DNA of 63,697 nt, filler included, from Folioceros fuciformis (Eukaryota): assembly GCA_049999805.1 (NCBI GenBank). It is 4 parts of 3 records of this genome, joined end to end, with 100 filler letters (N's around TTAATTAATTAA, not from the genome) between each part and the next. Parts side by side here need not be neighbours in the genome. Positions count along the whole stretch, not along the records: positions 35,743 to 62,395 come from JBNGIO010005475.1; 3 more parts are not named here. One strand, given 5' to 3'. Made by a program: the position numbers and the translations under genes. The stretch's first letter is position 1. Each line of letters opens with the position of its first letter. The notes under the pieces were generated by a model. The model saw nothing but the letters and a program-made list of their open reading frames with translations. It ran no database searches and was not told the origin of the DNA. This document shows, in pieces, positions 28,939-62,495 of this stretch.

Positions 28939-29040
28939 ATGGAGAGAGTTTCTCGCACCTGCGAGGGTAGCAGGCGGAGATCGGCAGCTGCCTCGGCCCC
29001 TGCCGCCTTAGCCTGTGATGCGCGTGAGCGACGGGTCTGA
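28939..29040 (+). promoter_or_regulatory. Candidate 33-codon upstream ORF before the DOG1-like gene
   Basis: GCGATGG start in strong context. Out of frame with the main ORF and stops 11 nt before its ATG. Lies downstream of a CT-rich UTR-like tract. Confidence 0.35.
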
Positions 29041-29051
29041 GCCTGCTGCCG

Positions 29052-30444: not shown

Positions 30445-32139
30445 ATGGCCACGCGCAGTTGCTTTCTAGCGTCAAGCACGTTCCTCGTTTGTTTCCTTCT
30501 CTACACCCACCTCAACTCCCCTCACTCATTTCGCAGGGCCGCCTGGCAGCCACAGATTTCTTCGCTATCTGAGGGGTTGTACCAGCACGTTGCCAAGGGC
30601 AGATTGAAGGTTTTTGTTGCGGATTTGCCGAGGCAACTGAATTACGGTCTTCTAGAGGAGTACTGGTTGGAGAGGGCAGGACATGGTTCCGTGAAGGAAG
30701 ACGGGGAATATTTGCCCTATCCCAGCGAGCCTCTATGGAAGCAGCACAGTGCAGAGTACTGGCTGTTGGCAGATTTGCTCACAGCACCTGGAAACAGAGG
30801 CAACTCCATAGCGGAGAGAGTCTTGGATCCTTTGGCAGCTGACGTTGTCTTCGTGCCTTTCTTTGCGACTTTGAGTGCCAAACTGCAGCTGGCAAAGTCT
30901 CGGAGCAAGTTCCGACATAAGCAGGAAAATCAGGACTATTTGCGTCAGCGGAACGTCATGGAAATCATTCACAACTCGTCTCTGTGGCAAAGGTCTGGCG
31001 GAGCAGACCACGTCTTTGTCCTCACAGGTAGATATGAACTGCAGCTTTCCATGACGCGTAGATTGAGGTTACGTAAGCTCAAGGAAATGCTAACGAGCAC
31101 TAATCTCTGATCTGTGGGCGGACGACGTCTGCCCTGTTGGACAGCATTTGGTGGGCCATCGCTATGTTAACTTCAGGAAACCACGCTTTTTCCGGACTTG
31201 TGGTATGACTTGCACTTGTGATGCATTTTCTGCAGATCCTTTGGCCATGTACCATTTGAAGAGCGAGGTCGCCCCCGCTGTTGTCCTGGTTGTGGATTTT
31301 GGAGGTTGGTACAGGGAGGATGCGAAAGCAGGAGCAGTGATCGTTGGTAGGGAGAGTTTGATCGTGCAAACGCAGGTTTCACTGTTGAAAGATGTTATTG
31401 TTCCGCATACTCATATGCTTCCCATGCTGAACATCTCTCAAGATGCGGCTCGTGATACACTCCTTTACTTCAGGGGCGCACGCCACAGACATCGCGTATG
31501 ATCCTCTCCCCAAAGCATGCAGACCTTGTTCTTTTTGTCGAGTTTTTCTTGATTCGCGCCTTAACACCTGGCAAATGGTACTAGCAGACTGGGCTGGTCC
31601 GTGATAAGCTCTGGCAGATTCTGGAAGGCGAGAGAGCAGTCATCTTGGAGGAAGGCTCTCCCGACGGGGCTGGTCTGGAAGAAGCAAAGACAGGCATGCG
31701 CAGGTCACACTTTTGCCTTCATCCAGCAGGAGATACGCCGTCGTCGTGCCGGCTTTATGATGCCATTGCCAGCTTATGCATACCAGTTATAGTCAGCGAC
31801 ACTATCGAGCTACCATTCGAGGGTATGTTGGACTACACAGAGTTTTGTGTGTTTGTGTCCGTTGGAGACGCTTTGCAGCCAAGGATGTTGTTGCAACGGC
31901 TGCTGGATATCAGCGAGCCACGGCGGAAGCAAATGCGTTCTCGTTTGTTCGAGGTGCAGCATTGTTTTGAGTACGATAATGGCCTGCCAGGGGGCAGGGG
32001 ACCTGCTGTGCAGGATGGTGCAGTGAACCACATATGGACAAAGCTTAGCTACAAGGTGCCTGCTATAAGGGAAGCTGTAACGCGTCGGGGCCGTATCCCC
32101 GAAAACGCTGTTTCCCAAGCTAGGTGTCATTGTGTGTGA
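30445..32139 (+). CDS. Exostosin/GT47 glycosyltransferase (ARAD1-like); exons 30445-31027, 31236-31495, 31588-32139
   Basis: N-terminal TM anchor, LKVFV.DLP..NYGL, QHSAEYWL, ADVVFVPFF, WQRSGG.DH, FCLHPAGDTPSSCRLYDAI..CIPVIVSD.IELPFE. GT-AG introns. Confidence 0.9.
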
Positions 32140-32658: not shown

Positions 32659-34410
32659 CTAGCATCCAGTAGCCTTCCTGACAGAGATGGGGCTCTTGAG
32701 GGCGACAATTCCGTCGTTACCAGCTAGCACTCTGTACTTGTCTTTCCTGGTGAAGTTGGTGCATTCGAAACTGAGGGTGGCAGCCAAGAGACGCTGAATG
32801 TAGTTGGCAACCTCATGTGCTGTCTTTCCTCCTGCGCAGGTGAGTTCTGGTGGCAGCTGGTCCAGGAACGTGACCTCGTACACTGGAGAGGGATTCATGA
32901 AGAAGTAGAAGGGGTCCATCCCCTTCCAGCCTCGAGCAGTAGTGCCGTGAAACATGCTCATTTTGTTCTCCATGGCCACAGGAACTATCATGTCCGCCAG
33001 CTCAGCAAACATTGAACTGAATCGCAGCAGGAATGGCTCTCTGCAGGTGGTTCCTTCGGGGCAGATAGCTAGGTCTCCTTCCGCCAAAAGCTTTCGTATG
33101 TTCGCTGCATCGTCCTCCCGCTTTCGAGCGAGGCTGACAGTTTTGATGGGCGAAATGATTTCCGAAAGCCGGGATATAGAGTACGTCACTGCGCTTACAG
33201 GCCTGCGGAGAGCCACGGACAGGAAGATGGGATCCAGCAGGGTTCTGTGGGAGCAGACAAATAGCACTCCCAGCGTTCCGTCCTTGACAGGAGGAGGCGG
33301 GGTTCCCTTGACTCGGATTCTGACGCCAAGTGCTGCAAATGCGTATGGGACTATGGACATGGGGAGCAGGGAACCTGCGGCTATTCGGAGGATGGCTAGC
33401 ACAAAACCGATGGGTATCCAGAGCAGAGTGAGGAGAGCGACAAGAGGAGTTGGGCGGCACACTAGTCTGCCGTCATGGAACACCATTGGCTTTGGTAGCT
33501 GGTGCTTGGAAACAGCTTCCACCCGCACATCAGCAGGTACAATGTATCCTTCCTGCATACGGGACAGTCGAAGTCAGCCTCGACGTCTACTGGACCTGCA
33601 TCGACCATTCAAACTTATCATGCAAGCTGCAGCGTACTCCGCAATCATGTCAGGAATTAACCTTGCAGAGAGACATGAATGGGAAGTCAGTCTGGCGATC
33701 CCCCAGCCCAACATCCGGCATCTTCTGGCCGAACACTCGGCGCATTGCATCCTCCTTGCTTACTCCGACCAGAACTCCCGGAGACTTGAGTAAACCTGTG
33801 GCCCGACCTGCTGGTGTCACATCAATCTCTGATCCTATCACCTCGTCAGCTCCAAGGTACTCTTTGGCAAATGTCTCCACCATGATCCTTGGGTTTGCTG
33901 TGAGCACATACCTGCGTGAACGCAAGAATTTCAATTTTGGCTGAGCTTAGCTGGGCATAGTAAAGTAGGAGATGACCATGTCTGCGTATGCGGGGGAACT
34001 ATGAAGGAGCTTAAAATGTACCGTCTCCCGAAGGCAGAAAACACTCGCCACGACTCAGGATGAATGTCGTCAGCGTAGAACTTGGGAAGCACAGCGCGAG
34101 AGACTGATTCAATTTCGGTCACCTTTAGCCCGGCAAAGGTGACGTAGACTAGAACTTGGATGCCTGCAGCCTCGGAGACAAAGTGATACAGGACCCAGGC
34201 AAGTGGAGCCGCGGTCAAGAGAGATGCAAAGCGGAGGAGTCCGCCTGCCTCGAAGGCAATGAGCATGAAGTACGGAAAGGAGCTTCTTCCCCTCAGCAAT
34301 GTTCCATCCAAATCGGACACAACTGTTTCCTTTCCTCGGAAAGTGGAACTGCATTTGTCGATGGTGGGAAACTTCTGCTCCATGATGTGTGCTTCCTGCT
34401 TCTTGGCCAT
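32659..34410 (-). CDS. GPAT6: sn-2 glycerol-3-phosphate acyltransferase, GPAT4/6/8-type; exons 34410-34022, 33911-33662, 33552-32659
   Basis: HAD motifs DLDGTLL and GDRQTD, acyltransferase motifs HRTLLDP and [31 protein letters not shown]. The symbol indicates the clade, not proven orthology. Confidence 0.93.
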
Positions 34411-35642: not shown

Positions 35643-35742
35643 NNNNNNNNNNNNNNNNNNNNNNNNNNNNNNNNNNNNNNNNNNNNTTAATTAATTAANN
35701 NNNNNNNNNNNNNNNNNNNNNNNNNNNNNNNNNNNNNNNNNN
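35643..35742. other. Artificial scaffold linker
   Basis: Ns with TTAATTAATTAA at 35687-35698. Confidence 0.95.
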
Positions 35743-35847
35743 AAGGATCTTTAATGTTTGTGTTTTTTGTTTTGAAAACAACATATACAGGTGACATAAT
35801 AAACCTAAAAAATTTGCTTAAAGAGGAGTTACATAAGTTCTCGCAAC

Positions 35848-37314
35848 ATGGATCTATGTAAAAATTGTAAAGTGCCGACTGAGATGTTTGAGGATACAAT
35901 GAACGGGGATGTCGTATGTAAATCATGTGGCTTAGTAAACGAGGAACGTTTCGTTGACCCGAGGGCCGAATGGAGGAATTTCAGTGATGATGCTAACCTT
36001 TTTAAAGACGAGCGTGTGGGGGAGCCCATGCAGATGGATGAGCTCGGAAATGGTGATCACGTAACAACTTTTATGAATACCGCTGGCACAAGGGGTGCAG
36101 TCCAAAGACTTCAAAAAATAAGAATGAGGGTAGATCAAACAATCAATATTGATCCTCACAAAGCTATGAAAGAGGCAGCAAGAATTACTCAAGCACTTGC
36201 CCAAAGTTTGCAATTGCCAGGGATTGTCGAAGATTTGGCATTGAGCTTTTACAAGAAGTTAAATAAGGGCTCAAATAATGTTGCGCGTGTCGGTGCAGCT
36301 ATTTATATAGCTTGCAAGCACCACAGGATGGTTCGGAGTTTACAGGACATTAGCAAATACAGCCATGGTAAGGTTAGAAAAGAGGACATTGGACAATTGG
36401 CAAAACACTTGGAAAGAATCCTAAACACAGAGCTACAGAAAGAAGGAAGCGCCGAGCTAGCTAGGCCATCGTATGCATGTGCACAAGAAGACGCACAGTC
36501 GCAAGGCTTGGTCCTAGGGCATGTACAGGTGGCACAAGGAAATGCACAATATAGAGCACAAGTCCAAGCACAAGCGGAGGAAAAAGTACAAATGCCAGGG
36601 TTGCTCCCAGGGCATGCACAGGTGGCACAAGCAAATGTGCCAACCAAGGCACAGGTTCATGCGCAAGCACATGTACAAGCAAAGGCACAAGTCCATGTGC
36701 AAGCAAATGTACAGGCAAAGGTACATGTGCATCCGCAAGCACAAGCAAAGGCACAAGTCCTTGCGCAAGCACATGTACAAGCACAAGCGAAGGCCCTATT
36801 CTTGGCACAAGGAGGACCACAAGTGCAAGCGGCGTGCATGGTGCAGATAGGGACAAAGACAAAAGATGATCAACAACCAAAAGATGAGCAACAAGTAGAA
36901 TCAGAAGTTAAAGAATGTGTCCCGCAAATCAAAAAAAGCTTTAAGGCCGTTCAAGAGTTAACTTCTCAAGACAAAAACCCATATGAAGGGATACTAGCAT
37001 ATTGCTCATGGCAATCCAACGAGTTTAAACTAGATTATACAACTTCAAAAGCAGTTAAGGAAGCTTTGTTGTTTGCTTTATACAACCTTGACATACGCAA
37101 GAGCCACAAAGCTATTGCAGGTGCAATTTTCTATATGATATTGCAAGTGTCTGAATCAAATCTCAAGAGGCAAGATATTGCAAAGGCTATTAGTATGTCT
37201 GATAGCACAATCAAAAGTACTTACAAGTTTATGTATCCGCATGCATTCAAGATAATTCCATCGTGGTTTTTATCAAGGAAGCACTTTGATTTGAACAACT
37301 TGTCTTCTTCTTGA
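35848..37314 (+). CDS. Divergent, intronless TFIIB-like transcription initiation factor with internal low-complexity insertion
   Basis: Zn ribbon CKNC..GDVVCKSCGLV, B-reader EWRNF..RVG, cyclin repeat 1 (AAIYIACK..RSLQDI), cyclin repeat 2 ending TIKSTYK.MYPH..KIIP.W. Open 488-codon frame. Confidence 0.85.
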   Translation: MDLCKNCKVPTEMFEDTMNGDVVCKSCGLVNEERFVDPRAEWRNFSDDANLFKDERVGEPMQMDELGNGDHVTTFMNTAGTRGAVQRLQKIRMRVDQTINIDPHKAMKEAARITQALAQSLQLPGIVEDLALSFYKKLNKGSNNVARVGAAIYIACKHHRMVRSLQDISKYSHGKVRKEDIGQLAKHLERILNTELQKEGSAELARPSYACAQEDAQSQGLVLGHVQVAQGNAQYRAQVQAQAEEKVQMPGLLPGHAQVAQANVPTKAQVHAQAHVQAKAQVHVQANVQAKVHVHPQAQAKAQVLAQAHVQAQAKALFLAQGGPQVQAACMVQIGTKTKDDQQPKDEQQVESEVKECVPQIKKSFKAVQELTSQDKNPYEGILAYCSWQSNEFKLDYTTSKAVKEALLFALYNLDIRKSHKAIAGAIFYMILQVSESNLKRQDIAKAISMSDSTIKSTYKFMYPHAFKIIPSWFLSRKHFDLNNLSSS

Positions 37315-39625
37315 ATTATGTTGAATATTTATTTAAGTATTTAATTAATTCATTTATTTTGAAGAACCAAATTTAACTTTAACGTCGACAAACTTATTGT
37401 CTTCTACTTAAATTAAGCTTAACGTTCATTAGCTCTAATTCATTTTGATTTGTTGGTTAGATACATTTCGTACTATGGCTTGTTGGTAACATTTGATGGA
37501 TTTTAGAATATTTTCTATGCTAGAGGACTCTTAGCTTCCATAAAGTTTTANNNNNNNNNNNNNNNNNNNNNNNNNNNNNNNNNNNNNNNNNNNNNNNNNN
37601 NNNNNNNNNNNNNNNNNNNNNNNNNNNNNNNNNNNNNNNNNNNNNNNNNNTAGAATATTTTCTATGCTAGAGGACTCTTAGCTTCCATAAAGTTTTACTT
37701 CAATTATAATTAATATTCATTTATAAAGATTAGGTTGGTGCTAGTTGTTGTAAGTTTATGTGAACATGGCGTTAGTTTACTGAACTTGGTAATAGTTTAC
37801 CGTTTTGCTTAACTTTCTATCATGTCCATTATTACAATATAAGTTTACATAAGTTGGATCTCATACCATCACAAGGTTAATGAAATACAGAAACAAGTAG
37901 CTCTTTGGGTCTTTTCTCCATAGTTTGTTGAAATGTGCTGCCTATCATCTACTATGTCTCCAACATGTCTGTCTTGAAGTAAGTAGACAAGATCTTCTAA
38001 GGGTTTGATTCGTTGTAATTTTGCTTGCGACTGTCCTCCATCTCTCTAATGATCATTACATCTTGCCATTAGGCTACAATGATTGCAAATGAGGTTTGCC
38101 TCATCACCTCTTTTGTGTGCCAAGCTTTGATGCTTCAAACTACTCTTTGCTTTATCACTTGTTTCTTTATACCTAGCTTGCTACTGTTAATGAGTCTACC
38201 TTGGTAGACTTGTCGACTCTTCTTGTGTTCCAAGCGCTGAAGCTTCATACTACGCTTTGCTTTGTCACTCTTAGCTTTTTCTTGTACTTAGCAGATTACT
38301 ATTAATGGGTCTATCTAGTTGAACTTCGAAGCCCCAATTTCGAATCGCACTCTCTTGTACCTTAGTGTGGATTAAATGGAGAGGAGTGTGTAAATTTAGA
38401 TTGTCCATGAACTCCTTACCTCTTGATTGTGTGCAACAAATTGCAACATTCCTACTTTGAAATGTATCATAAGTGTTGGATGAGACTATGAAGAAAGGTT
38501 GTTTCTTTGTCTTGGACTATGTTGCTACGAAGCAATAAGTGTGGGCACTTTGTTTATAAGTTGGTCGCTTTATAAGTTGGTCGCTCTCCTTACTGTCAAG
38601 GGTCTGTGGTGACTTACTCGTCTTCTGACACCAGAAATGTAAATGGACTGCTCATCAACCTTGGCTGGCTTTGAAATTTGTTCTTCTAAGATTGATTTTC
38701 ACAACAAAATATCTACATGAAGTAATAAAAGATGGAAAGTCCTATCTACTTCAAAAGATTGGAGTAATAACTTGAGCTAGACCAAAGGCCAAAAAAGGGG
38801 ACTAGCTCTTCGAACATCATTCTCAAAAACTACCTACTGCTTCTAAAATGTCATGATGTGGAATAACAAAAGACCTACCTACCACATTGCTTGTTGTTGT
38901 TCTAAAAACCACATTGGCCAATGTTCTTTATAAAGCAATAGATAACCATTGTCGAAAGAAGGCCACCACCGAGGAAAGAGGGAGAACACCATTCCTATGA
39001 CTCTAACAAACCTTGGCACACTCCTTGATGAATCTTGAAAAGTCTTTGCCCATAGCCTATGAGTCTCAAGAGCAAGGGAGATGAAAGCATGCTCACCTTG
39101 TAGGAAAAATACTTATGGATTTTGGTGCTAACACAACTCTCCACCGTCTATTCAGGGGTTGATAATGACGTGCTCACAGATCAAATTCCTAGTAGGATCT
39201 ATGACAACCACATCAACAAGACAAACCTATTCCTATTCCCTTAGTAAGAGAAAGTCGACTCTAAGTGAAACCCCATTGCACAAAGAATATAAATGCTCCT
39301 TATACAGAAGGAAGAAACTCGTACTCCCTAACCATTCAAAATATGACACCATTGAGAATATAACATCATGGTTGGCAATATGGCAATTTCTAATCATGGT
39401 ATCTCATCTAACCATGGTATCTCAAACCACATCACGGATAGCCCTAATCATTGAGAACATGATATTTAAATCCCATAATGAATGGCTCTAGTGATCGAGA
39501 ATCATAATGGCAATGCGTTGCACCAAAGGCAGGGGCAACGGGCCACTGCATAATGTTATCTAGATGACAACGGGGTTCTACCGTGCTGCCAATTCATTCC
39601 AATCGAAGTCCACTTCATTCCAGCT

Positions 39626-42600
39626 TCAAGCGGACCACGTCAAGTCGAAGTCCTGGCCGACAGACAAGTCGAGGCCGGTAATGTCCGTCCGGAAGGTGGA
39701 CGGCTCGAAGGCCACTGTCACAAGACGAGACGCCGGCTTTCCGTTGATGTGCAGACGGGAGGGCGCGGATCTCAGTCCCAGGACAGTGACTGTCTGCACC
39801 GTCAACCCTGCCTTGAGCGCGTATCCTCCAGATCGCCCGACTCGAGCTGACACAGAGCCTCCAGCGCGGGGAGACAGCTGGGCCGAGTATTTGACGAAGG
39901 TCGACTTCCATCTGGCAATCCGCATCTGCACCTCCTCCTCGCTGTCCACGAAGAGCGTTCCGTGGGCGGCCTGCAAATCGCTCGTCTCCAGCGAGAAAGC
40001 CAGCAGCAGTGTGAACGGGGTTTTCCGGGCCAGGGCCGTCGTCAGTCTCACTTGTTGCAAGGGAAGAATGGAGCCTTCGTGGACATGTACGTTGATCACC
40101 TCCAACGGGGCCGGCAGTGTGTGGTAGGACCCCTTGGGGCTGCTGATGCGCGTGGAGTCGAAGAGGTTGTACCAGGTGCCGTTGGGGAAGTATGCCCTAA
40201 CTGACGTCGCTCCGTCTTCCAGGACTGGCGAGACGAGAACCGAGGGGCCGAGCAGCATCTGGCGGTTGATCTGCAGGGTCTCGGGTTCCTCGGGGAAGCG
40301 GAAGAATAGGGGCCGGGCAATGGGATGCCCGGTCATGTGGGCCTCGAAGGCCAGGGTGTAGAGGTAGGGCAGGAGCCTGTAGCGGAGACCAAGTGCGGCG
40401 TTGGCGGACCTGGTGACGGATTTCCAGAGGTACAGTTCCTGGTGAGGACTGTTGATGTCCGCGTGGTTCCGGGAGAAGGGGTAGAATGCGCCCAGTTGGA
40501 TCCATCGGTTGCATAGTTCTTCTGTGGTGCCGCCGATGAACCCGCAGATGTCTGCACCCACCATGGGGACCCCGAATAGGCCAGAGTTGAGGGTACTGAC
40601 GATGGAGTAGGCCAGGTCGTTGAAGGTGGCTCCGTTGTCCCCGGTCCAGTGGGCTGTGTATTTACCAGAGCCGAGGAAGGTGGATCTCGACAGAAGGAAG
40701 GGCCTCGTGCCTAGGGTAGATTTTAGGGCTGCTTCCGTGGCGATGGACTCGGTGAGACCATATAGGTTGTGGGCGTTATACTCCAAGATATCTTTGTAGT
40801 GTCTTGCGCTGGTGGCGATGGTCTTCACTCCCAAGTCTCGGTGTTCCCCGCCGTAATTTATCTTGTAAGGAGGCTCGTCATACAAGGTTGGGTTGGAGGA
40901 GTCACATACCAGACAGCACACAGTCTGCCGGGTAGGGTCCGGGCATGATGTATTTGTGGGAAGGGAGCATTTCCTGCCGCTGCAGAAGTTGGACGCCTCG
41001 TTCATGTCGATCCACAGGCCGTCGAAGGGTACCTGCTGGTGGAAGTCTGATATTTCCCTGGCCCAGTAGTCTGGCGTTGTGGGGTTGAGGAAATCCGGGA
41101 AGTACACTGGGCCTGGCCACACTTGAGCAAGATAGTTGTCCCCCTGATAGTCCTTGATGTATATATCGGACTCCAGCCCACGGAGGAATGTGGTGTAGTT
41201 GTAGTCGGTCTTGATGCCTGCATGAATGTGTGTAGGCAAGTTGTTAGGCATTCACACTCCTGACGAGAGTCCTTTCGATTCAGATGGCAAGGAAAGCTGG
41301 CAAGGGATACGTGTACTACCAGGATCGACAATCACAACATACTTCTGCCCGTCGGCATGTAGTCGGTTCACAAAGTTGCGTAGTTTATCCTTGGGGAAGT
41401 TGACTGAATCCGTGGTGAAGTCTCGCCAGCCGTTCATGTAATCTATGTCAGTCCACATCACTTCCAGCGGCAAATTTGCCTTCTTGTAGTTTGCAACCAC
41501 CGACTCCAATTCCTCCACGTTCCTGTAACCATACTTGCACTGATGGAAACCTGAAGAATGAAGCATGAGGGTTTCCGAAGTTTGTGAGCTTGTTTCGTTC
41601 GGTGAACATCTATTCCGGGAAAGCGACACAACACAAGGGAAAAGATTTGGGTTCTTACCGAAGGACCAGTATGGCATGGGCGCAGGCTTTCCTACAATTT
41701 CAGTGTATTGAGAAACAACTGACATTGGGAATGGGCCCGCAAAGTAGTACAGGTCCAGAACACCTCCCACAATCCGATAGGTCAGAGAGTCATTCCCATA
41801 TGTGACGTCCATGCCGTTGCTGTTTAGGAGCAGCACACCATGTGAAGAACCACCTTCTCTTACATCCAGATAGAAGGGAAAAGACCCATAGAGATCTATG
41901 TCTATAGATAAGCTGGGGATATCTGCAGCCCAGAGCGTGTAGGTTCTGCCATGCGAGAGTCGGAGTCCATCAGGACGAGTACTTTCACCCAGCCCATAAA
42001 GCGATGCACTCGTAGGAACTTGTGTTGATAGCTCCAAGTACTGATCCTTGAACACCAGACTGCCGAAAACATCTTGGGCTTCTCCTCCTGCGGCTGGAGG
42101 GGTTGTGTTGAACAATACCTCTCCAGTTGCCCGTCTGGTGATGGCAAAACCAAAGGGATCAACGGTGTAGGAGAACTCCAGGTGCCTCGAAGAAAAGCTC
42201 GTCTCTCCTGTTTTGAGCTGGAGAGGATCGGGACCCTTGTGTCGGGGAATGACATCGTCGGGTATTTCCCATCTGTCATCATTGGCGTCTGTAATGTGGA
42301 CATGCAGCCTGTCAGCAGTTTCGTACCTGCACCAACAGAACCATTTTGGATTATTGGCAGGACGCAGAATAGGAGACACAAGAAAGCCCTTTCTCTTTTG
42401 TAGCCAGTCACTCCCAGACTAGAGAGCGAAGTACCTGACGACCAGTCTCAGCAATGCAATATCATCACCGTAAGTCTTTGTCGGCTCGATCACCTTCAGG
42501 GTCGCAACAATCGTGTCTCCAACCACGGTGTCGCTGATTGATGTAAGGCGATATCCATTCCCCACATTTCCAGTAGCCAGAGAGCAGACAGCCAAAAAGC

Positions 42601-44340: not shown

Positions 44341-46509
44341 CTGTCATCTTCTAAAGGTGGTGCGGCCTCAATCTCATGCTGCATCTTTCTTCCTCGTTCA
44401 CACATAGGCCCAGAAACACAAGTTCAACATGACTCGTTGATCCCATTTGGTGCTTGTGAGCAAAAACATATCAGGCATTTTCAACTCCGTACTTCCTTAC
44501 TCCCAGGCTATTGTCCAGCTGAAAAGAACAGTTGCCCTGCCATGAATGTGTTCAGCACCGTAACGAATCTAAAGCCACAGGCTGTCTTCTTCTGAAGGTG
44601 GTGATGCGGGTTCAATCTCATACAGCATCGTTCTTCCTCTCGCAAACATGGCACGTAAACACAAGTTCAACATGATTAATAGATCCCATGGTCCCTCCAC
44701 ATGCTTTGGCAGCAGAACGTAAGTGTAACGAAACCATCATGGTGAGAACAATACTGTGCTTTCATAACACACGGTACGCAATAAAACAAGATAGCAGCTT
44801 ACCAGGTTACCGACATGCCTTCCAGGTGAACACCAGATTCAAGATTGGGGTCACTTTACTCCAAATGCACCACTTTCAGGCATCGTCAACTTGGGAGCCT
44901 TGGTTCTCAGTTATATACCACATTCTCTATGTTAGCCTAAGCCTGCAATCTCGGCAGCAGTGTGCAGAGAGAGACAGGTGAGTGCATTCATCACAGACCT
45001 GGGCCGGTCTGCCTTTGCTTGCTGCCTTTCTATGAGAGGATACAGTTAATAAGAGATGGCAGCAAACCTGGGGCTGTATTCGAGCTCTGGTAACGCATAT
45101 CTGGCAATCGAGACCTATCCCATCCCATCCCATCCCTCCTGATGTCCATGAATCATCCTTTTCCATTTGTCCACAAGTTGCCGTCGCTGTCCTAGCAGTC
45201 TGGGGTTGTGGACTTGAGCAAAATTCTCTCCCACGACAGCCCTTGTCGCAGTCCTGAAGGAACACAGTGTGGACCTTGCTCAACATCCAGATCACAAACA
45301 AAACTTTTTCCAACCCATCTGTACTTCCCGAAGAGAAACTTGATTCCTGCGGCATACAATTCAATATGAGAGTGATCCATTACGGTTCTGGCATATCCAT
45401 CGATCCTGTTGACAAATTCCTGTCGTGGGACGGCCGGAAATGACAGTTGCTCCACTGTTATCCGTGGCACGTCTAGGCGTTCCCGTTCGAACAAGGCTTG
45501 TTGCTGTATGACAGACGCACTGGAAGAATGCGGCTACTCCAGCTGCCAGAAGTGAAATTGGAGAAGCCAGCAGCGCCTCCTACGAGATGGAGGCTGCGGC
45601 GATTGGTTTGGGGCCGTGACCTTGCCTCCCTTCCTCTGAAGAAACCCAACAACCAGCCTAAATGCGGATGTTCCACTATCAGTATTCCTCACCTACCTCC
45701 AACCATCGTTGTAAGACTGCTGTCGGGGAGTATTACGCGCGAAATCTTTGAACTTCTTCGACAAATTGAGGCGCACAAAGAGCTTGCACTTTGCGGCTGG
45801 CTTGCGCGATTCGTTAGGGAGTCAGTTAGAGGAGGTCGAGGATTGCTGCTCTTGTGGTGGACTGCCTCTTGGCCAACCCGTCAGCGCGATGCGGTGCACC
45901 AGCTTCTCGGGATGGAAGTTTTGGAATAACCAATTGGAGCTATCCTGTGTGAGAATTGCACACTACTGTTTGACGCCAGGCAGAAGCAGTGCGAATGAGG
46001 GGAGGTGGTGGATCTGGTGGCCGCTTGGTTTTCTGGAATGTGGTTCAATTCAAACCCAGCGACTGCAGCCATCTGCAAGAATGGTGTAGATGTTTATCAT
46101 CTGTGCAGGGGGCGGTTGTGTCGACAAGAAGTCCCGGTGAGTGCTTTCGTATGGGACTAGCATCAGTGTCTTCCTGCTTTACCTCTAAGATCTTCAATGG
46201 TGTCTTGCAGCAGGAGATGCATCGTGGGTTAAGCTAAAGGATTGTGCACCATGGTGGGACAGCAATAGCCATCTTCAAAGTTCAACAAGGGAGGATGGTT
46301 GGCTGGAGAGACCACCTAAAGTTGGCGCGGGCAAATTGTCAAACTTTGGCACAGCGGATCCTATCTTGCACCTTCCAGGATCTCTGGGTGTTGTCACTAC
46401 CGGAAGGTACTCCCGTTTCAAAGAGATGGTTTTGGTTCTTCGATCTGCAAACGTTAGGGCTTCCTGGTTGTGACAGTCCTGGGCACCGCGCAGGCAGAGA
46501 CAGGGCTTT

Positions 46510-48936
46510 TTGGAAGTAAAGAGCTGGACCAAGCTTTCGGAGAAGGGACAGCTCAGTGAAGCATATCGAGCACTTGAACTTCTGGTACAACAAGGATGCG
46601 AACCTTCAACGTACATGTTCTACGTTCTTCTCAGAGGGTGCGTGAAGAACCGCAATCTGGCGGTTGGCAGGGATGTACATTTCCTTGCTCTTAGATGTGG
46701 GTATGAGTCAAACTCGTTGTTGGCTTCTCATATCATCCGCATGTATGCTTCTCATGGGAGCCTACCAGAAGCGAGTCAGGTCTTCAGCAAGTTGGCTGCA
46801 CCCAACAACTTTGCGTGGGCTTCTATCATCTTGGCCCATGCTGAACATGGCCAGCCTGAGCAGGCCATCAAATTGTATGCACGAATGCGGGAATCCACAC
46901 TGAAGCCAGACAGCTACGTGTTCGTCGCAGTTCTCAAGGCGTGTACCTGTTCATTTGATTTATGTTCTGGAAGGCAGGTCCACGCTGATATTGGCAAGAG
47001 CGATGTGGAGCCCAATTTGTTTGTTGAAAATACTCTGTTGGATATGTATGCCAAGTGCGGAAGCTTGGAGGATGCTCGCATAGTATTTGATAATATGCAG
47101 AAAAAAAGTGTAGTGACGTGGACTGCAATGATAGCAGCATATGCCCAGCATGGGCTGGGTCAGATGGCCCTTGATCTCTATTCAAGTATGGGGAAGGATG
47201 GCGTGAGTTTAGCTGACAGCGTCACCTTCGTTTGTCTGCTGAAAGCATGTGCCAGCCTTGGAGCCATACATGAAGGCAAGCAACTTCATGTCCATATTCG
47301 AGAAAAGGGATTGGAAACACATTGGGCTATTGGCAACAGCCTGGTGGACATGTATGCAAAATGCGGGAGCTTAGATGATGCCCGTGAAATTTTTGATAAC
47401 TTGCAGAGGCGAGATGTGGTATCCTGGAATACAATGATTTCAGGCTACACTCAACATGGCCTTGGTGGAGAAGCCCTTAAGCTTTACGCTGGGATGCTTA
47501 AGGAAGGCATTAGCCTGGCTGATCCGGTCACCTTCGTATGTCTACTGAGGGCATGTTCCAGCACTGGGGCCATACATGAGGGCAAACAACTCCACAGCCA
47601 AATTCAGCAACAAGGACTTGAACTAGATCTGATTGTTGGCAACAGCCTGATATACATGTTCATGAAGTGTGGCAGCTTGGAGGATGCGCTAAGCGTGTTT
47701 GAAAGGCTGCCCACAAGAGATGTAGTGACATGGACAAGTATGATAGCAGGATACACCCAGCACGGACTCGCTCAGGAGGCTCTCAGTTTTTCTGCAAGGA
47801 TGCAGCAAGAGGGTTTGACTCCAGCCAACCACGTAACTTATGTCTGCCTGCTTAAAGCATGTGCCAGTGTTGGAGCATTGCAAGAGGGCCGAGAACTGCA
47901 TTCCAAGATCCTGGAGAGAGGGCTGGAAGCAGAGGTCGTTGTTGGCAACAGCCTGGTGGACATGTATGCAAAATGTGGGAGGCTTGAGGATGCTCAAAAC
48001 GTTTTTGACAGATTGCCCATCAGGAATGTGGTAACATGGAATGCACTGTTGAATGGCTATGGGCAGCACAATGATTGTGGGATGGCTGTGCATTGTTTTG
48101 CGAAGATGCAGGAGTGTGAAGTGGAGCCAGATGCTACTACCTTCATCAGCCTTTTGGTGGCATGCAGTCACCAGGGACTGGTGAAAGAGGGTCAACAGTA
48201 TTTTGAGTCCATGATGGAAGACTTTGGCATCAAGCCCACCGTTGAACATTATGCTTGCCTGGTTGATCTCCTGGGGCGAGGTGGGCGCCTAGATGAGGCC
48301 GAGTACTTGGTGCGCAGCATGCCACTTGAAGACGATGGTGTAGTTTGGACATCTCTGTTGAGTGCGTGCAGCAACCATGGTGATGTTGCTCGAGGAAGGC
48401 GATGTTTCGACCGTATTACTGCCTTGCGCCCTCAACAGGCATCTGCTTACGCGCTTATGTGTACCATCTATGCCGATGCTGGACATTGGGGTCTTGTTGA
48501 AAGCGTGGAGAGATTGAGAAAATCGACGGGTGCTCAGAAGAAGCCAGCAAGGGCCTGGATTGAGGTGAACAGCAAGGTGCACTCGTTTGATGTGGGAGAA
48601 GACAGGGATGACACTTCCCTTCAACTAAGAAGCATAAACTTGCGAACTGAGGGTGGTTATTCGCCACACGCAGAATTGGTGCTGAAGCCTGTCTCCGACA
48701 AGGAGAAGGAAGATGAGTTGTGTGGTCATGCTGAGAAACTAGCTTTAGCATATGGTATTCTCAACACTCCACAAGGCACAAGTTTAGTGGTAACGAAAAA
48801 TCTACGCATGTGCAATGACTGCCACAGTGGAACCAAGCTTCTGTCCAGGATTGAGAAACGAGAAATTACAGTGAGGGATGCTCATCGGGTACATCATTTC
48901 AGGGATGGTTTCTGCTCTTGTGGAGATTCCATCTAG
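46510..48936 (+). CDS. PLS-class PPR protein with E1-E2 and a DYW:KP-type deaminase-like domain (organellar RNA editing factor); true start unresolved
   Basis: About 17 PPR motifs (L-S-P triplets ending P2-L2-S2), E1 and E2, then KKPARAWIEV, HAEKLA, KNLRMCNDCH, HHFRDG.CSCGDSI. Intronless across the PPR tract. Confidence 0.95.
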   Translation: MEVKSWTKLSEKGQLSEAYRALELLVQQGCEPSTYMFYVLLRGCVKNRNLAVGRDVHFLALRCGYESNSLLASHIIRMYASHGSLPEASQVFSKLAAPNNFAWASIILAHAEHGQPEQAIKLYARMRESTLKPDSYVFVAVLKACTCSFDLCSGRQVHADIGKSDVEPNLFVENTLLDMYAKCGSLEDARIVFDNMQKKSVVTWTAMIAAYAQHGLGQMALDLYSSMGKDGVSLADSVTFVCLLKACASLGAIHEGKQLHVHIREKGLETHWAIGNSLVDMYAKCGSLDDAREIFDNLQRRDVVSWNTMISGYTQHGLGGEALKLYAGMLKEGISLADPVTFVCLLRACSSTGAIHEGKQLHSQIQQQGLELDLIVGNSLIYMFMKCGSLEDALSVFERLPTRDVVTWTSMIAGYTQHGLAQEALSFSARMQQEGLTPANHVTYVCLLKACASVGALQEGRELHSKILERGLEAEVVVGNSLVDMYAKCGRLEDAQNVFDRLPIRNVVTWNALLNGYGQHNDCGMAVHCFAKMQECEVEPDATTFISLLVACSHQGLVKEGQQYFESMMEDFGIKPTVEHYACLVDLLGRGGRLDEAEYLVRSMPLEDDGVVWTSLLSACSNHGDVARGRRCFDRITALRPQQASAYALMCTIYADAGHWGLVESVERLRKSTGAQKKPARAWIEVNSKVHSFDVGEDRDDTSLQLRSINLRTEGGYSPHAELVLKPVSDKEKEDELCGHAEKLALAYGILNTPQGTSLVVTKNLRMCNDCHSGTKLLSRIEKREITVRDAHRVHHFRDGFCSCGDSI

Positions 48937-50044
48937 CTGCTGTGTTGCACTTTCTCATTACTTGGACTGAACGAATGCTGTCTACTGCGGGTCTTCCCTC
49001 AAACGTTGGAGAGCAAGCAGAGTCGGCAAGTTTCATAGCTTCTGTCATCGGAATAACCAAGGGAGTGCAGACCAGAGCAGACTTGCCAGTTCATCTGAAA
49101 GTTCCCAGCTGGGGCTACGCACCAGAAGCCAACAGATTTACCTGAGACTTGGAGTACCTGCAAATCGCAGGTATGCATCTCTCCTTACTCACACGTGTTT
49201 TTGTGCTTTGATCCATGACCTCGCAGCAATGTCCTTGGTCCGAGCAATGTCCATGCAAGAGGCAGACTAACTTATGGCGATTTGTCGGTGTCGGCTCCAG
49301 CGTGGTAGAGATGGCCCAACTGCGCAGGCAGGACTTTCTGACCAGCTCAAAGCTATCTGAACCGGTAGGACATCAATCGTCTGCATCAATGTCTCACACA
49401 CAACTGTGGAAAGTGAAACTAGAGGTCCTGCAAGAAGAGGTGTGCTCGTGCCAAGGGATGAGCAGAAACCTGGAAGCATTATCCATTCTGACTGTTGCTG
49501 GACAACGTAGGGTTGTTGAAAAAGGCACACACCCTTTGATGAGTCTCTCCAGCCAAGTATCCTCCCATGTTTACGTGCCTTCTTTACATTGAAAAATCAA
49601 CTCAAAGGTACACCTAGAATGTCATGACCCTGTCTACTTATCAACAGAAAAAAAGATTCATTGAGTAGTTCAAAGAGTAGTTGGCAATGCTCCATGGACT
49701 AAAATTCAAAGAGTGGTTGGCAATGCTCCATGGACTAGAGAAGTAGGTGCAACAGCTCTATGCGCAGTGAAGTGGATTGGTGAAGCCAACGCACCGACTG
49801 TCTTCTCCCCTTTATTTGGACGCCCCAGTTACTGGCTACCAATTAGAGGGAGCCCTCTTCTTCGGAGGGTGATAAGGCCCTCTTGCAGTTATCTTTCCAC
49901 ACGACACTAGTCTTAATTCATATCCACTTCATGACTCACGAGTTCAACTAGGCATATGATCTCGTTATTTCTGATGCGGCTCCACCTGGTAATCCGCTTG
50001 GGAAACGAATTGAGTCGCGCAAATAAATCGCAGTATGAACGTCT

Positions 50045-51469: not shown

Positions 51470-51900
51470 CCGAATAATATAGCCCTAATACCATAGTATA
51501 CTAACACCACCTAGTATAGCCCACCTAGTATACTAACCACCACCTAGTATACTAACACCACCTAGTATAGCCCACCTAGTATACTAACACCACCTAGTAT
51601 AGCCCACCTAGTATTCTAACACCACCTAGTATAGCTAGTATACTAACACCACCTAGTATAGCCCTAACACCAACACCGAATAGTATAGCCCTAAAACTAG
51701 TATAGCCCTAACACCAACACGGAATAGTATAGCCCTAACACCAACACNNNNNNNNNNTATAGCCCTAACACCAACACGGAATAGTATAGCCCTAACACCA
51801 ACACCGAATAGTATAGCCCTAACACCAACACCGAATAGTATAGCCCTAACACCGTACAATATAGCCCTAACATCAAATAGTATAGCCCTAACATCAAACA
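51470..51900. repeat. Minisatellite: CACCTAGTATA(CTAACAC/GCC) units grading into 27-bp TATAGCCCTAACACCAACACSGAATAG units
   Basis: Direct tandem repetition visible. Contains a small N gap. Confidence 0.9.
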
Positions 51901-52044
51901 AGCCACAATAGCTAGGGCTGTACTTGCAGACAAGGGCAGTCTACAAATCAACAAAACTACCAAGGGTAGTGCCTCTAACCTTCCTACACCTCCACCCCTT
52001 GCACGCCACATGCATCCCTAAACTAGGCAATCCCTAGCACCAGA

Positions 52045-52249: not shown

Positions 52250-52610
52250 CATTGGCTAGGGTCGCCATGATGTTGTCTCCGTTGGTGCCTGGCTAGGATC
52301 GCTATGATGTTGTCTCCATTGGTGCCTCGCTAGAGTTGCCGTGAAGTTGTCTCCATTGGTGCCTCGCTAGGGTCGCCGTGACGTTGTCTCCGTTGGTGCC
52401 TCNNNNNNNNNNGTTGGTGCCTCGCTAGGGTCGCCGTGACGTTGTCTCCGTTGGTGCCTCGCTAGGGTTGCCGTGACAATGTCTCCGTTGGTGCCTCGCT
52501 ATGGTCGCCGTGACGTTGTTTCCGTTGGTGCCTCGTTAGGGTCGCCTCGCTGTTGTCTCCGTTGGTGCCTCGCTAGGGTTGCCGTGACGTTTTCTCCTTT
52601 AGTGCCTCCT
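52250..52610. repeat. 37-bp tandem repeat, about 9 copies
   Basis: GTTGTCTCCGTTGGTGCCTCGCTAGGGTCGCCGTGAC repeated, with a small N gap. Confidence 0.92.
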
Positions 52611-54580
52611 TCTGCTATACATCGGGCTTGTGTGCCCCGTGAGCGACCCCTCTGTGGATGCATAGGCATCTCATCCTCCTCCTCTTCAGAGGAGTACAAC
52701 TCAGAGTACGATAGTTCCTACTGTATGTTGGTCTTGTGTGCCTCGAGAGCCACCTCGCCGTGGATGCACTGGCATCTCATCCTACTCCTCTTCAAAGGAG
52801 TACAACTCGGAGGATAACAGTGCCTGACGCTTGCACACCCTCCTCGTTCGCAACTTGCTAGACCTTGAATTACGATCCATATCACCGCCGCGGTGTGCAT
52901 CATGTCATGTACCATTGCTTGGAGTACCACGAGGACCGCCTCTACAACCTCCAATGTGTCTAGCATTACTCGCCTCCAACTCCATTTGCAGAACACTCCC
53001 CCCACAACTAGGTTTAGTGCAAGCTTTCCGCTCAAGTGGTGCCTTCAAAAATAAGATAATTTGATGAGGTTGACATAGGTTGATGAATGAGAGGAAAGAG
53101 AATAAAGAGAGGTTGATGAATGAGAGGGACAGAGAATAAAGTTAACTTGACTAATCATGATTAACAGATGATAAAAATAAGGAAACTTTGTACGAAAATA
53201 AGATGTTATTGGTTCATAAGGACACAAAGGGGTGTTGTCTACCATACTCGAGGCGCTTAATCACCACGATCGCCCTTGTATCACTCACTGCGCGTGGGTC
53301 ACGTGTGTGTGCGCTTTTGGCCCAAGCCGTTCCGAGGGCAACACACATTAGCTCGTGTTGCAACCGTCTGACGACGGAGACTACAACAGATTTGGTACTA
53401 CCCGCAAACAAAACAAGATCAAACCAATGCCTCCACAGCATCAGTGAGATCACGCTGACGTTACTTCTTGATGCGGCTTTCAAATTACAGTGGTTTGACG
53501 CGATACGCAGCAGCGGGGACGTGTTTGCTGAGAATTCAGCGAGGATACGACATTCCGTATGCCGGAGATGTGCACCCTCGCGATGTACTGGTAGATCCTT
53601 GACTTCCTCCTCCTATTTGTCACGTTGTCCGTCAAACTTCTTGAGGATCCTTTTCAACGATGGTAAAATTTGAAGGCGCTATATGAGAGTTGAGGCTTGT
53701 GTGTACAATACCTGCAGCAATTGCCCGTGCATTTGTTGTGTCACTGACGGATAATGGACGCGACACTAGCTTGACTTAAGGAAGAATTCTATCTACAGGG
53801 AAGATCGAAACCAAGTCTTCACAAGGAGGCTGCAACTGATTTGACAGGGCGAGGAAAAGGATATTGTACAAGTTCTGAAGCTCTCGAAGTGGACGGGTCC
53901 CTGGGTGAAGAAGGTAAGTGGCTAGGAGTGAGCAGTATAAATTCTCAAATGAGTTATTGGATGTACGTGTGATGAACATCTTTTCCCGGCGATGAAAGAG
54001 GGTTGATATTTCAAGTTAAAGGAGGGAGAAAAATGTTGGAGCCGACATCGCTTGGACGCGCACGATGTTTGCAGTAAACTGATTTATTCTCTTCACCAAA
54101 AGCTAGACTACAAAAGTTGTGACAAGCAATTCTAGATTTGAGACGCAGAATGACAGGGGCAAAGGTACGATGCCCCTTGTGCAATACCAGTCTCTCACAA
54201 CTTGCAGATCCAGATCCACGGCAAACTGGCCATAACCATAGCCAACCCAAAACTGCACAAACTTACAAGCCCGCGAGACAGCAAACCTGCCAATTTTACA
54301 TCTGACTACTCCTACTTTACGTACAAAAGGTTACAATCTGCAACTAGTCTCAGGTGAGATGACCTCCACATCCCTGATTCTCGTGCTCCCGGATGTCCGC
54401 CCACAAATTTCCCCGCCCTTCAACAATCCACCAGACGATTTTTCATAAGATCCACGGAATGTCACCATTCTAATGGTGTGCATTGCTGAATGCAGTGCTT
54501 GGATCACGATTAGAGGGAGCCACACGAGGGTCGACGTCAACAGTTACCTTGGCCAGGCATGTACACAGCATTCATGGCCA

Positions 54581-55264
54581 CTACCCATGGTCGCCGCCGC
54601 CTCCATAGCTGCCCCCTCCGTGGTCGCCACCTCCTCCATAGCCACCGTTGCCGTGGTCGCCGCCTCCTCCATAGCCACCATGGCCGTAGCCTCCACCTCC
54701 ATAGCCGCCGTGGTCACCACCTCCTCCATAGCCACCATGGCCGTATCCGCCACCTCCATAGCCACCGTGGCCGTAGCCACCACCTCCATAACCGCCGTGG
54801 CCGTAGCCGCCACCTCCATAGCCGCCGTGGCCGTAGCCACCGCCTCCTCCATAGCCGCCATCTCCTCCATAGCCGCCGTTGCCGCCTCCTCCATATCCTC
54901 CTCCGTAGCCGCGGTCGTCACCACCACCGTAGCCTCCGTGGCCGTGGCCGCCGCCACCCCCACCGTAGCCTCCATGGCCGTGGTCGCCACCACCCCCACC
55001 GTAGCCTCCGTGGCCGTGGTCGCCACCACCCCCACCGTAGCCTCCGTGGCCATGGTCGCCACCACCCCCACCGTAGCCTCCGTGGCCGTGGCCGCCACCA
55101 CCTCCACCGTAGCCTCCCTTCCCGTGGTCGCCACCTCCTTCGTAGCCGCCATCCCGGCTCTCCGGGTCGTCAGCGAGCACTCGTGCGCCATGGACGTAAA
55201 GGGGCGCCAGCAGTGGTAGCAGCAGCAACAGGACGAGCAGCAGCACGCCCAGACTGGGCGCCAT
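54581..55264 (-). CDS. Secreted glycine-rich protein with GGYGGGG(G/D)HG(H) repeats
   Basis: Hydrophobic signal peptide MAPSLGVLLLVLLLLLPLL..HG followed by ARVLA (typical of plant GRPs), then ~190 aa of Gly/Tyr/His/Asp repeats. Alternative start at 55279. Confidence 0.88.
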   Translation of the reverse strand: MAPSLGVLLLVLLLLLPLLAPLYVHGARVLADDPESRDGGYEGGGDHGKGGYGGGGGGHGHGGYGGGGGDHGHGGYGGGGGDHGHGGYGGGGGDHGHGGYGGGGGGHGHGGYGGGDDRGYGGGYGGGGNGGYGGDGGYGGGGGYGHGGYGGGGYGHGGYGGGGYGHGGYGGGGYGHGGYGGGGDHGGYGGGGYGHGGYGGGGDHGNGGYGGGGDHGGGSYGGGGDHG

Positions 55265-57264
55265 CTTGTGACCCTTCATTGCTGGCAGCGCTGTCGACCG
55301 ATCAATGACTCCGCTGGAACGAGGACGAGAATGCGCGGGAGCTGCTTGCTGTCGCGATCGCAGGCAAATTGCGAGTAATGCACACACCAGCTGTGAGATC
55401 TCTGCCTTGTGATTTGTGTGGGCGAGCTCGGCCGTTATATGTACCGTCGTCCAAGCTACAACCGGACCTGGATATTCATTCACCAAGCTGACTTGCTGCT
55501 CCAGTGAGCTGCAGTTCGAGGTCTACAGGTTCCTGTCAACCATACCACGGCGTCGACCTCTTAACTGCCAGTCCCGGCACCGCCCAGCATCAGAGGGCCT
55601 GCTAGCTGTCGATCGACTCCATATGGCCGTGAAGACTCAGATGATGGGGTGACTACTCGGGTCACGTCCTCGTATTCAAAGGATGTTGTGATAAATGTTG
55701 CAATATCAGCCTCCAGTTGTCAGTCCTATGTTGGTTAGGCCCACTAAAACGATCACCACAAGTAGCCCTGTCCTCCTTCCTGCCTGCCTTCTGCCTTCTT
55801 GCATTGGCCTTAGTTTCCGAAATTCCTTCAGCCAGGTTCGAATGATTTGCCAGACGATTTCTGTTGAGTCGATGAGTATGGCATTCCCGCGAGAGTTTGA
55901 ACCAAGGGATGTGGACTTTCAAACCATTGGACAGGTTTGGCAACAAGAACGCAGCGAACCTCGCTATCTGAAGTCAAGTCATCGACACCGGAAAGCTCTG
56001 GGATTCGGCAGAGTAGTACAGAAAGAACACAAATCTAAATTAAAATTAAACCTGGTGTGCTTCTTTGATGCTGCAAATGTTTACATACATACTGATGACC
56101 AAAGTGGTCTCACAAACAGGGCACTCCTTGCAATGGCCATAGTAATCTGCAGTCACCCTGGGTCCTGCTGTACAGAAGCTGCAATAATAGGCGTTCCATC
56201 ACACAGTGTTGGGCATAGGCAATCTCCCACTAATCGTCCACAAGTCTACCATACTTTGCATATCCATGTGGTCAACCGGGAAGTGATACCGGCAAATACA
56301 TGTTGCTGTGCAGCACAGCATCCCTGGCCGCGGAAGTGAGTTGCAGCGCACCATCAACGCTCGCCAACGGATCCCACACGTTGGTGAGTTGGGAGAAAAG
56401 ATAATAAACTCTTGAGGTTCCCCGGCCGAAGAACGACATCAACGCCATGGCCCTTACGAGCTGACTTCACCTTTCACGCTCACAGAATCGACACCAGCCG
56501 AACGGCAATCCAAAGACTAGTGATACATCGATCGATGCAGAAGGAAACAAGTCACCTGGATCTCCAAGTTTCCACACACGCACATCGTTATCGTTCCAGC
56601 ACGATCTGTTCACTTCCTTGTCTTCCTCCCCGCTTCTGTGTAGGCTGCTTTCTAGGACCTTGCACACCCGACGCAATACAAATTTTCCTTCCCAACAACA
56701 AGAAACCCCCTAGACTTGTGGTTCCCTTGCATCTCCGGCCTCCGGATCCTCTCCCCTTGCTTCGTGGAGCCAATGGCGTGCGCCTGAGGTCAGACCTTCG
56801 GAGCTCCTGGCAAAGACGTCCGTATACTCTCGGTGTGCATAGCTATGTATCCATCATCTCGATGTGCATAACTATGTCTTTCCCCGAACGACATGCAGAT
56901 GTGGTGTTACGCAGAGAGCCTGACATTCTAGAGGTCTGGAAAGCTTGTCGTCCCCACTCATCATTACTGCAGACGACGACGCGGCCAGAAACACGCTGTT
57001 GCGTGGACAGGCCACCGACAAATGCCGAGCTGGAAAGTGAAGGCGATGGATGGAGATGTCGGCCCACACATCTTCATCATCGCGTGGACTGTTCACCTCC
57101 ATATCGAACTTTATCCATTCGTCCTTTGGGTATCCTTGCCGCATGGTGGAAAAGCAGCCTTTGAAGTGAATAATCTTCTTGGTCGCTTGTAGTATTCACA
57201 TCCAGCCCAAATCGGTTTATCCTGTCTTCCTGTGCATACCGTGGGCTGAGGGACATTTCGCAGG

Positions 57265-62395: not shown

Positions 62396-62495
62396 NNNNN
62401 NNNNNNNNNNNNNNNNNNNNNNNNNNNNNNNNNNNNNNNTTAATTAATTAANNNNNNNNNNNNNNNNNNNNNNNNNNNNNNNNNNNNNNNNNNNN
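62396..62495. other. Artificial scaffold linker
   Basis: Ns with TTAATTAATTAA at 62440-62451. Confidence 0.95.

Follow-up and report, generated by a model that had tools for sequence, protein, structure and literature searches.

The plus strand of a 63,697-nucleotide stretch of Folioceros fuciformis DNA (assembly GCA_049999805.1; hereafter the window, positions 35,743 to 62,395 of which come from JBNGIO010005475.1) carries a pentatricopeptide repeat (PPR) gene whose last part, 48535-48936, raises a question. Does the encoded protein end in a DYW domain of the KP type (DYW:KP), and would such a protein edit RNA in the U-to-C direction, as a first-pass annotation had proposed? To our knowledge, no candidates for enzymatic U-to-C RNA editing other than DYW:KP proteins are known. 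The analysis described here demonstrates that the protein is a PLS-class PPR protein with a DYW:KP domain and that its gene is intact. Because of this class membership, we consider it likely that the locus is a natural nuclear gene for a protein that converts a target U to C in organelle RNA.

An open reading frame (ORF) of 820 codons extends from stop to stop over 46474..48936 of the plus strand. Translation from the TTG at 46510 up to the stop codon at 48934-48936 yields a protein of 808 residues (P0001), whose residue numbers are used below. Four PPR families of Pfam matched this protein upstream of the DYW:KP domain with E values of 1e-40 to 1e-86 (best 1.8e-86), and the E_motif family matched residues 623-685 (E 3.8e-10). 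The repeat motifs were tiled by eye and script. Motifs of 31, 35, 36 and 32 residues covered residues 3-609 with no gap and no overlap, the whole tiling spans residues 3-808, and the resulting arrangement is the PLS-class layout (P1-L1-S1)n-P2-L2-S2-E1-E2-DYW. At the C-terminus, the Pfam DYW_deaminase profile matched residues 716-807 over 92 of its 93 positions (E 2.9e-36), while solved DYW domains matched the query with E values from 6.9e-51 (9kfx) to 2.6e-31. E2 and the domain together were modelled with AlphaFold2 at a mean pLDDT (predicted local distance difference test) of 86.5.

Published descriptions of the class supplied the features against which the domain was compared (cited statements, here and below, are those of excerpts of the papers). 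DYW:KP domains carry KP where DYW:PG domains carry PG (PMC11845758, PMC11332814), Ala or Cys replaces Ser after the zinc-binding His (PMC11845758), and the length is 132/133 residues, with the xHP motif that is conserved in PG missing in most members (PMC11845758, PMC9478123). Met92 occupies the place of Val95 of PG, and an Asp in the tail is conserved across KP except in the GRP variant, which is without this Asp and has Glu instead of its partner Lys (PMC9478123). DRH and GRP are the two named hornwort KP variants (PMC9478123), and tracheophyte KP domains group apart from hornwort KP domains (papers including PMC9478123 and PMC11845758).

Examination of the query domain, which begins QKKPARAWIEV (residues 676-686), bore out the five features that had been reported for it. 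The PG box is replaced by KKPARAWIEV, HAE is present rather than HSE, the CxxC is intact within CNDCH, and the protein ends GDSI and not DYW. The segment between the box and the active site is shortened and without SHP; in an alignment to the solved synthetic PPR-DYW protein 9kfx it is 4+1 residues shorter, opposite KSHPQT, and the lowest pLDDT values of the model (65-74) also fall within it. The presence of these five features at their coordinates (Table 1) is far beyond chance. A search of all six frames of the whole window for a second HxE..CxxCH match returned none besides that of the PPR gene. Conversely, none of the five canonical DYW:PG traits (PG box, HSE, xHP, a length of about 136 residues, DYW tail) is present in the query, which is 3-5 residues shorter than DYW:PG domains because the xHP segment is missing.

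Position numbers were assigned with Q676 as position 1 and anchored on K88, M92, D131 and the C-terminus per PMC9478123 and PMC11845758. The resulting numbering (H65-A66-E67, K88, M92, C93..C96, D131, I133) reproduced the published anchors, although positions 6 and 17 are not safely mapped and the numbering below position 47 depends on the published KP consensus alignment. In an alignment of 61 KP and PG sequences (A1), the invariant columns comprise the H and E of the active site, an Ala, the Lys88 equivalent, the C, C and H of CNDCH, an Asp, a His and the last Cys. Both Asp131 and Lys101 are present in the query, and the domain is therefore not GRP-like; its DSI tail is neither DRH nor GRP. 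The first-pass annotation had called this C-terminal tripeptide atypical. That description was not sustained, since the last triplet is published as diverse among KP proteins (PMC11845758), and DSI also ends another protein of our set (P0032). Judged by its sequence, the domain is a textbook and ordinary member of the described DYW:KP class, with every membership feature that could be tested present.

Results from searches for relatives elaborated on this assignment. A word-indexed search with residues 620-808 returned 61 proteins. Among the 40 best of these, the active-site motif is HAE in 39 and HVE in one, xHP is absent in 38, and no protein ends in DYW; the other 21 display HSE (20) or HGE (one), with xHP present in 19 and a terminal W in 18. 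Over E1-E2-DYW, identity to the nearest relatives ranges from 61 to 69%. Named relatives include a lycophyte, Diphasiastrum (56%, with THP, HVE and DYY), and ferns (44-51%), among them Ceratopteris and Adiantum (44-49%). In an exhaustive profile-free search, the 132-residue domain matched 2451 representatives at E<=1e-3; of these, 1620 remained at <=1e-10 and 46 at <=1e-30. The best representative match, P0183 (E 4e-62), was not counted as a close relative, as its high score came from two tandem PG-type domains. In this 463-residue protein, a PG-type DYW domain is repeated in tandem almost perfectly. Two DYW active-site motifs per chain were observed in P0183, P0186 and P0189, the last of which has HCE near its N-terminus and HSE at its C-terminus.

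A motif census of 206 proteins (205 matches plus P0001) left 200 full domains after six were dropped, four as partial and two as being without the motif. HSE was present in 136 of these domains, HAE in 48, HCE in 13, HGE in two and HVE in one, and xHP was missing in 46 of the 48 HAE domains. No two of the 40 commonest tails listed for the 61 HAE/HCE domains were alike; DRH occurred ten times, GRP four times and DSI twice (the query and P0032).

For subclass hidden Markov models (HMMs), 60 domains labelled KP and 101 labelled PG were used, the labels being assigned by a rule on HxE and the tail and not from published reference sets. The query scored 216.1 bits on the KP model and 161.5 bits on the PG model, a lead of 54.6 bits for KP. 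Five-fold cross-validation placed 60/60 KP and 100/101 PG domains on the correct side; because the labels derive from our own motif rule this validation is partly circular, while the score of the query itself is not. Trees were obtained by quick IQ-TREE searches of 109 rows, namely all 64 non-HSE domains and 45 drawn at random from 130 distinct HSE domains, using short alignments (114-144 columns) that leave many forks unresolved. In the tree from all columns, the query was located in an all-HAE clade of 45 (SH-aLRT support 93), itself part of a larger KP-like clade (65 rows, 95). Opposite stood a clade of 41 PG rows (93), and the ferns formed their own clade of 10 (98). Once the columns for the box, the xHP segment and the tail, together with the middle position of HxE, had been taken out of the alignment, the query paired with P0002 (81), whose tail is VDH, and remained in an all-HAE clade of 22 (97) together with all ten DRH and all four GRP rows. 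Membership in this clade, with its tails of hornwort variants, points to a seedless land plant, most probably a hornwort, as the host. Models and trees thus support a grouping of the query domain with KP and not with PG. A DYW-domain phylogeny and subclass HMMs were the checks that the first-pass annotation had proposed for its class assignment, and a grouping with canonical DYW:PG, which it had named as the outcome contradicting it, was observed in neither.

Two further analyses were discarded. The all-column tree suggested a third hornwort subgroup of 11 rows holding the query (support 85); it dissolved once the trait columns were dropped and was therefore rejected as not robust. An approximately unbiased (AU) test rejected the placement of the query together with all 45 HSE rows (p 0.00055), and a control that united 35 canonical HSE/..W rows was rejected as well (p 1.5e-8). 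As the group definitions cut across real clades, the AU tests are uninformative and were not used.

In an effort to evaluate the gene model, the locus was compared with two sequencing runs, X1 (DNA) and X3 (49 million letters from the organism of the window, its kind guessed as RNA). In the long ORF, no ATG is met until residue 36, a position that would fall inside a PPR motif. A 465-letter contig (X3 record 10) joins 46210-46404 directly to 46492-46691 with 0 mismatches on either side, and this 46404/46492 joint is equivalent to the removal of 46407-46493 (intron 2). Retention of this intron would place an in-frame TGA at 46471. A contig of the DNA run (X1 record 2) is unbroken across 46081-46757, the intron included. 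Matching of X3 record 10 ends at 46210, right after a CAG, with 70 letters left unplaced, and the X3 depth in the bin 46044-46217 is 2.94, equal to 6.56 x 78/174, which fits an intron of 74 nucleotides. From these observations and the splice consensus we infer a second intron at 46137-46210. With both introns out, the frame is open to an ATG at 45995, giving 926 codons and about 118 residues before the first PPR motif. The gene is thus probably transcribed and spliced, with three exons and a product of about 926 residues. PLS-class PPR genes are usually regarded as intronless. The introns of this gene, one short and probably a second, both lie 5' of the repeat array.

Additional information on the gene came from a second, related organism (organism B), for which a run guessed as RNA (X4) and a run guessed as DNA from the same sample (X5) were available. 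The organism B copy is about 93-95% identical over 46497-49168. The indels listed for its X4 contigs are all 3' of the stop codon, and X5 displayed, at low depth, three 1-nucleotide gaps and one 3-nucleotide gap within the coding region. In the 40 listed of 173 differences, codon positions 1/2/3 were changed 9/9/22 times, and 20 of the 39 changed codons were synonymous and 19 nonsynonymous. This distribution provides a weak hint of purifying selection on the PPR gene. Contig depth reaches thousands on the bins of PPR/DYW motifs in all four runs (in 47958-48131, 7128 for X3 and 15719 for X5). Such a pile-up on conserved motifs indicates that both organisms maintain very large families of close paralogues.

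The proposed working of the protein follows from its architecture. The N-terminal extension of about 118 residues would carry it into the plastid or the mitochondrion. There the 18 PPR motifs and E1/E2 are expected to bind one nucleotide each of the RNA upstream of the target, with S2 opposite position -4; editing takes place four nucleotides downstream of the S2-aligned base (PMC12733224, PMC9478123). In the PPR code, Asn as the fifth residue of a motif specifies a pyrimidine and Ser or Thr a purine, while Asp as the last residue specifies U/G and Asn C/A (PMC12733224). With P and S motifs read and L motifs left open, the predicted recognition string from -21 to -6 is 5'-R n A n n Y G n U U n U A n Y U-3'. 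The fifth/last residues and their readings are T/S at -21 (purine), S/N at -19 (A), A/D at -18 (unclear), N/S at -16 (pyrimidine, likely C), T/D at -15 (G), N/D at -13, -12 and -10 (U each), T/N at -9 (A), N/N at -7 (pyrimidine), N/D at -6 (U) and A/D at -4, the S2 motif (unclear). The DYW:KP domain, with its zinc site (His740, Glu742, Cys768, Cys771) and Lys763, would then convert the target uridine at position 0 to cytidine. By analogy with the designer consensus KP proteins, Lys763 would attack C4 of the uridine and form a Schiff-base intermediate that is resolved to cytidine. The first-pass annotation had called this chemistry unresolved. For designer KP proteins it is no longer wholly so, as a Lys88 Schiff-base/crosslink model has been published (PMC11332814, PMC11845758). 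The activity of natural KP proteins was still called unknown in February 2025 (PMC11845758).

Several points weigh against this interpretation, and some of them would fit a DYW:KP protein that in vivo edits C to U, or runs both reactions, instead of U-to-C only. KP6, a designer protein, edits both ways, and single substitutions flip its balance, E64G and L113V shifting it towards C-to-U; position 133 also affected its direction (PMC11845758). By our numbering the query has G64 and V113, and its residue 133 is neither His nor Phe. The two reaction directions are not told apart by HAE versus HSE (PMC9478123), and Lys88, essential for U-to-C in designer proteins, is yet conserved in C-to-U DYW:PG domains too (PMC11845758); the corresponding Lys763 is likewise invariant in the PG sequences of alignment A1 and hence not KP-specific. 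The A/D combination of motifs P1-2 and S2 has no reading in the simple PPR code. On the other side, E47, A116 and V119 of the query are residues that shifted KP6 towards U-to-C. All five of these residues are described as KP consensus residues (PMC11845758), and G64 and V113 are thus carried by the whole class. With this mixture the editing direction is not readable from sequence. Nevertheless, the KP class is confined to clades with U-to-C editing (PMC13386178, PMC9478123), matches of KP proteins to U-to-C sites through the PPR code have been reported (PMC9478123), and we regard a C-to-U or two-way enzyme as unlikely. It is hardly credible that the domain is instead a canonical DYW:PG cytidine deaminase that resembles KP through a few chance substitutions. 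Its overall identity to PG domains is still 36-48%, but the KP model leads by the margin given above, the all-HAE clade holds the query at 97% support even when the diagnostic columns are removed, and the PG box, HSE, xHP and DYW are all missing.

A different doubt concerns whether the gene functions in editing at all, or is one paralogue among very many, in decay or catalytically inactive, whose product would at most bind RNA. Hornwort PPR families comprise more than 1400 proteins (PMC10030945), hundreds of paralogous contigs stack on the conserved motifs, the long ORF begins without an early ATG, and about half of the changed codons relative to organism B (19/39, among the listed differences) are nonsynonymous. 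The comparison with organism B is a partial sample (40/173), and some of its contigs may be paralogues. The gene model has its own weak points, in that exon 1 and intron 1 were not directly seen, that X3 is only guessed as RNA, and that the joined form might also stand in a DNA run among the 180 joints beyond those listed. Decay is opposed by the 820-codon open frame in which all zinc ligands, the Glu and Lys88 are kept, by the upstream in-frame ATG that the spliced contig brings back, by the enrichment of third codon positions (22/40 of the listed differences) and by the X4 indels, none of which precedes the stop codon. The domain is also predicted to fold confidently as a DYW domain. Taken together, we judge loss of editing function to be quite improbable, and a natural U-to-C editing factor is the interpretation that we prefer.

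One may further ask if KP proteins with tails other than DRH or GRP, such as DSI in the query and VDH in its nearest relative, form a distinct functional set of natural enzymes that may release the edited RNA or work in both directions. We give this idea little credence; if it were true, the tail and neighbouring residues of such proteins would tune the reaction. The KP class has been catalogued genome-wide since 2020 (via PMC9478123 and PMC11845758), and the present gene offers nothing beyond the hundreds of KP genes already catalogued. What it contributes is a single well-annotated case, for which a motif map, a map of key residues, a spliced gene model and a predicted recognition string are now available. 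A literature search, judged mostly from titles and the beginnings of abstracts, found no assayed natural KP protein. Since KP proteins are the only known U-to-C candidates and no natural member was found assayed, any natural gene that is intact and expressed could serve as a test object and supply sequence for base-editor design.

Table 1. Coordinates of the PPR gene, its motifs and the residues of its DYW:KP domain in the window.
Feature	Position	Strand	Basis
Putative exon 1, likely ATG 45995 (first ATG after an in-frame stop)	45995..46136	+	Frame; GTGAGT donor; X3 letters and depth
Putative intron 1, 74 nt, GTGAGT..CAG	46137..46210	+	Splice consensus; X3 contig end; depth
Exon 2, encoding part of the extension N-terminal to the PPR array	46211..46406	+	X3 record 10 over 46210-46404, 0 mismatches; frame open
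Intron 2, 87 nt, GT..AG	46407..46493	+	Joint in X3 record 10
Coding segment 3' of intron 2 through the stop codon	46494..48936	+	820-codon ORF; translation; Pfam
18 PPR motifs: 31-residue S-like, L1-S1, four P1-L1-S1 triplets, P2-L2-S2	46516..48336	+	Tiling; Pfam
E1 motif	48337-48438	+	Tiling; Pfam E_motif
E2 motif	48439-48537	+	Tiling; Pfam E_motif
DYW:KP domain with stop codon, from the first base of codon Q676	48535-48936	+	
DYW:KP domain, 132 residues from KKPARAW (133 if counted from Q676, 48535)	48538..48933	+	
Lys-Pro pair K678-P679 replacing Pro-Gly of the PG box	48541..48546	+	Read from sequence and translation
HAE: zinc-binding His740, Ala741, catalytic Glu742	48727..48735	+	Sequence; His and Glu invariant in 61/61 aligned KP and PG sequences
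Lys763 (Lys88 in the 133-residue KP numbering)	48796..48798	+	Invariant alignment column K120 (A1)
Met767 (Met92)	48808-48810	+	Read from sequence
CNDCH, residues 768-772: CxxC zinc ligands and His	48811..48825	+	C, C and H invariant in A1
CSCGDSI: CSC motif, conserved Asp131, variable tail Ser-Ile	48913..48933	+	Last Cys invariant in A1
CSC	48913-48921	+	
C-terminal DSI	48925-48933	+	

The surroundings of the gene were characterized from ten window frames scanned with Pfam, seven of which matched. Judged by the neighbouring frames (RVT_2, Arm, DUF538, DOG1, GT47, acyltransferase, TFIIB and GH31), the window is plainly plant nuclear DNA. A fragment of a Ty1/copia-type reverse transcriptase lies at 722-1360 on the minus strand (RVT_2, E 8.5e-59). 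Ordinary plant genes are represented by DUF538 (26523-27191, minus), a DOG1/TGA-type domain (29028-29825, plus), a GT47 exostosin-like frame (30334-31110, plus) and a GPAT-like acyltransferase (32659-33573, minus). A TFIIB-like frame with a zinc ribbon and a TFIIB repeat (35809-37314, plus) is split by a long low-complexity stretch rich in Q/A/V/H. The GH31 gene, alpha-glucosidase/xylosidase-like and with two long exons (39626-42418, minus), has best plant identities of 47-57%, and a search of its exon among longer proteins matched mainly animal tandem enzymes. Short tandem repeats at 51653-52011 (minus) produce open frames of heptapeptide-like units, broken by an N run at 51748-51757. A highly repetitive stretch at 54449-55522 is open in several frames of both strands, one minus frame of which would encode a Gly/Tyr/His-rich protein with GGYGGGG-type repeats and a signal-like N-terminus. 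Twelve N runs, taken as gaps of the assembly or masked sequence, were counted in the window and none in the PPR gene; besides the one just mentioned they include 3960-4059, 4791-4890, 5879-5978, 10444-10453, 35643-35742, 37551-37650, 52403-52412 and 62396-62495.

Comparison with known systems places the protein closest to the natural hornwort PPR-DYW:KP proteins of the DRH and GRP variants, with which it shares the PLS array, E1-E2 and a 133-residue domain with the KP box, HAE, no xHP, M92 and Lys88, its Asp131 and Lys101 being as in the non-GRP members. It differs from them in its DSI tail, and its placement relative to their groups is unstable, lying in a weak side group of 11 when all columns are used and inside the DRH/GRP clade when the trait columns are left out. 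The designer proteins KP2, KP3 and KP6 (PMC9478123, PMC11332814, PMC11845758) have the domain class and key residues in common with the query and are, according to these papers, the sole KP proteins for which U-to-C activity has been demonstrated and a Lys88 crosslink model exists. They are consensus sequences with three PLS triplets directed to Arabidopsis rpoA, whereas the query is natural and has 18 PPR motifs. Designer KP proteins stay crosslinked to RNA in bacteria, while natural fern editing is described as leaving no crosslink (PMC11332814). The DYW:PG factors OTP86 (7o4e/7o4f) and DYW1 (7w86) and the synthetic PPR-DYW with RNA (9kfx) show the same PLS-E1-E2 layout, zinc ligands, Glu and active-site Lys. 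The query model is predicted to share their fold (Foldseek E 8e-18 to 3.5e-9, TMq 0.59-0.83), the best match being 9kfx (TMq 0.83, rmsd 2.4), followed by 7o4e/7o4f and 7w86. Relative to these factors the query has KP for PG, HAE for HSE, M92 for V95 and no DYW tail, and in both trees and HMMs it stands opposite to them across the KP/PG split.

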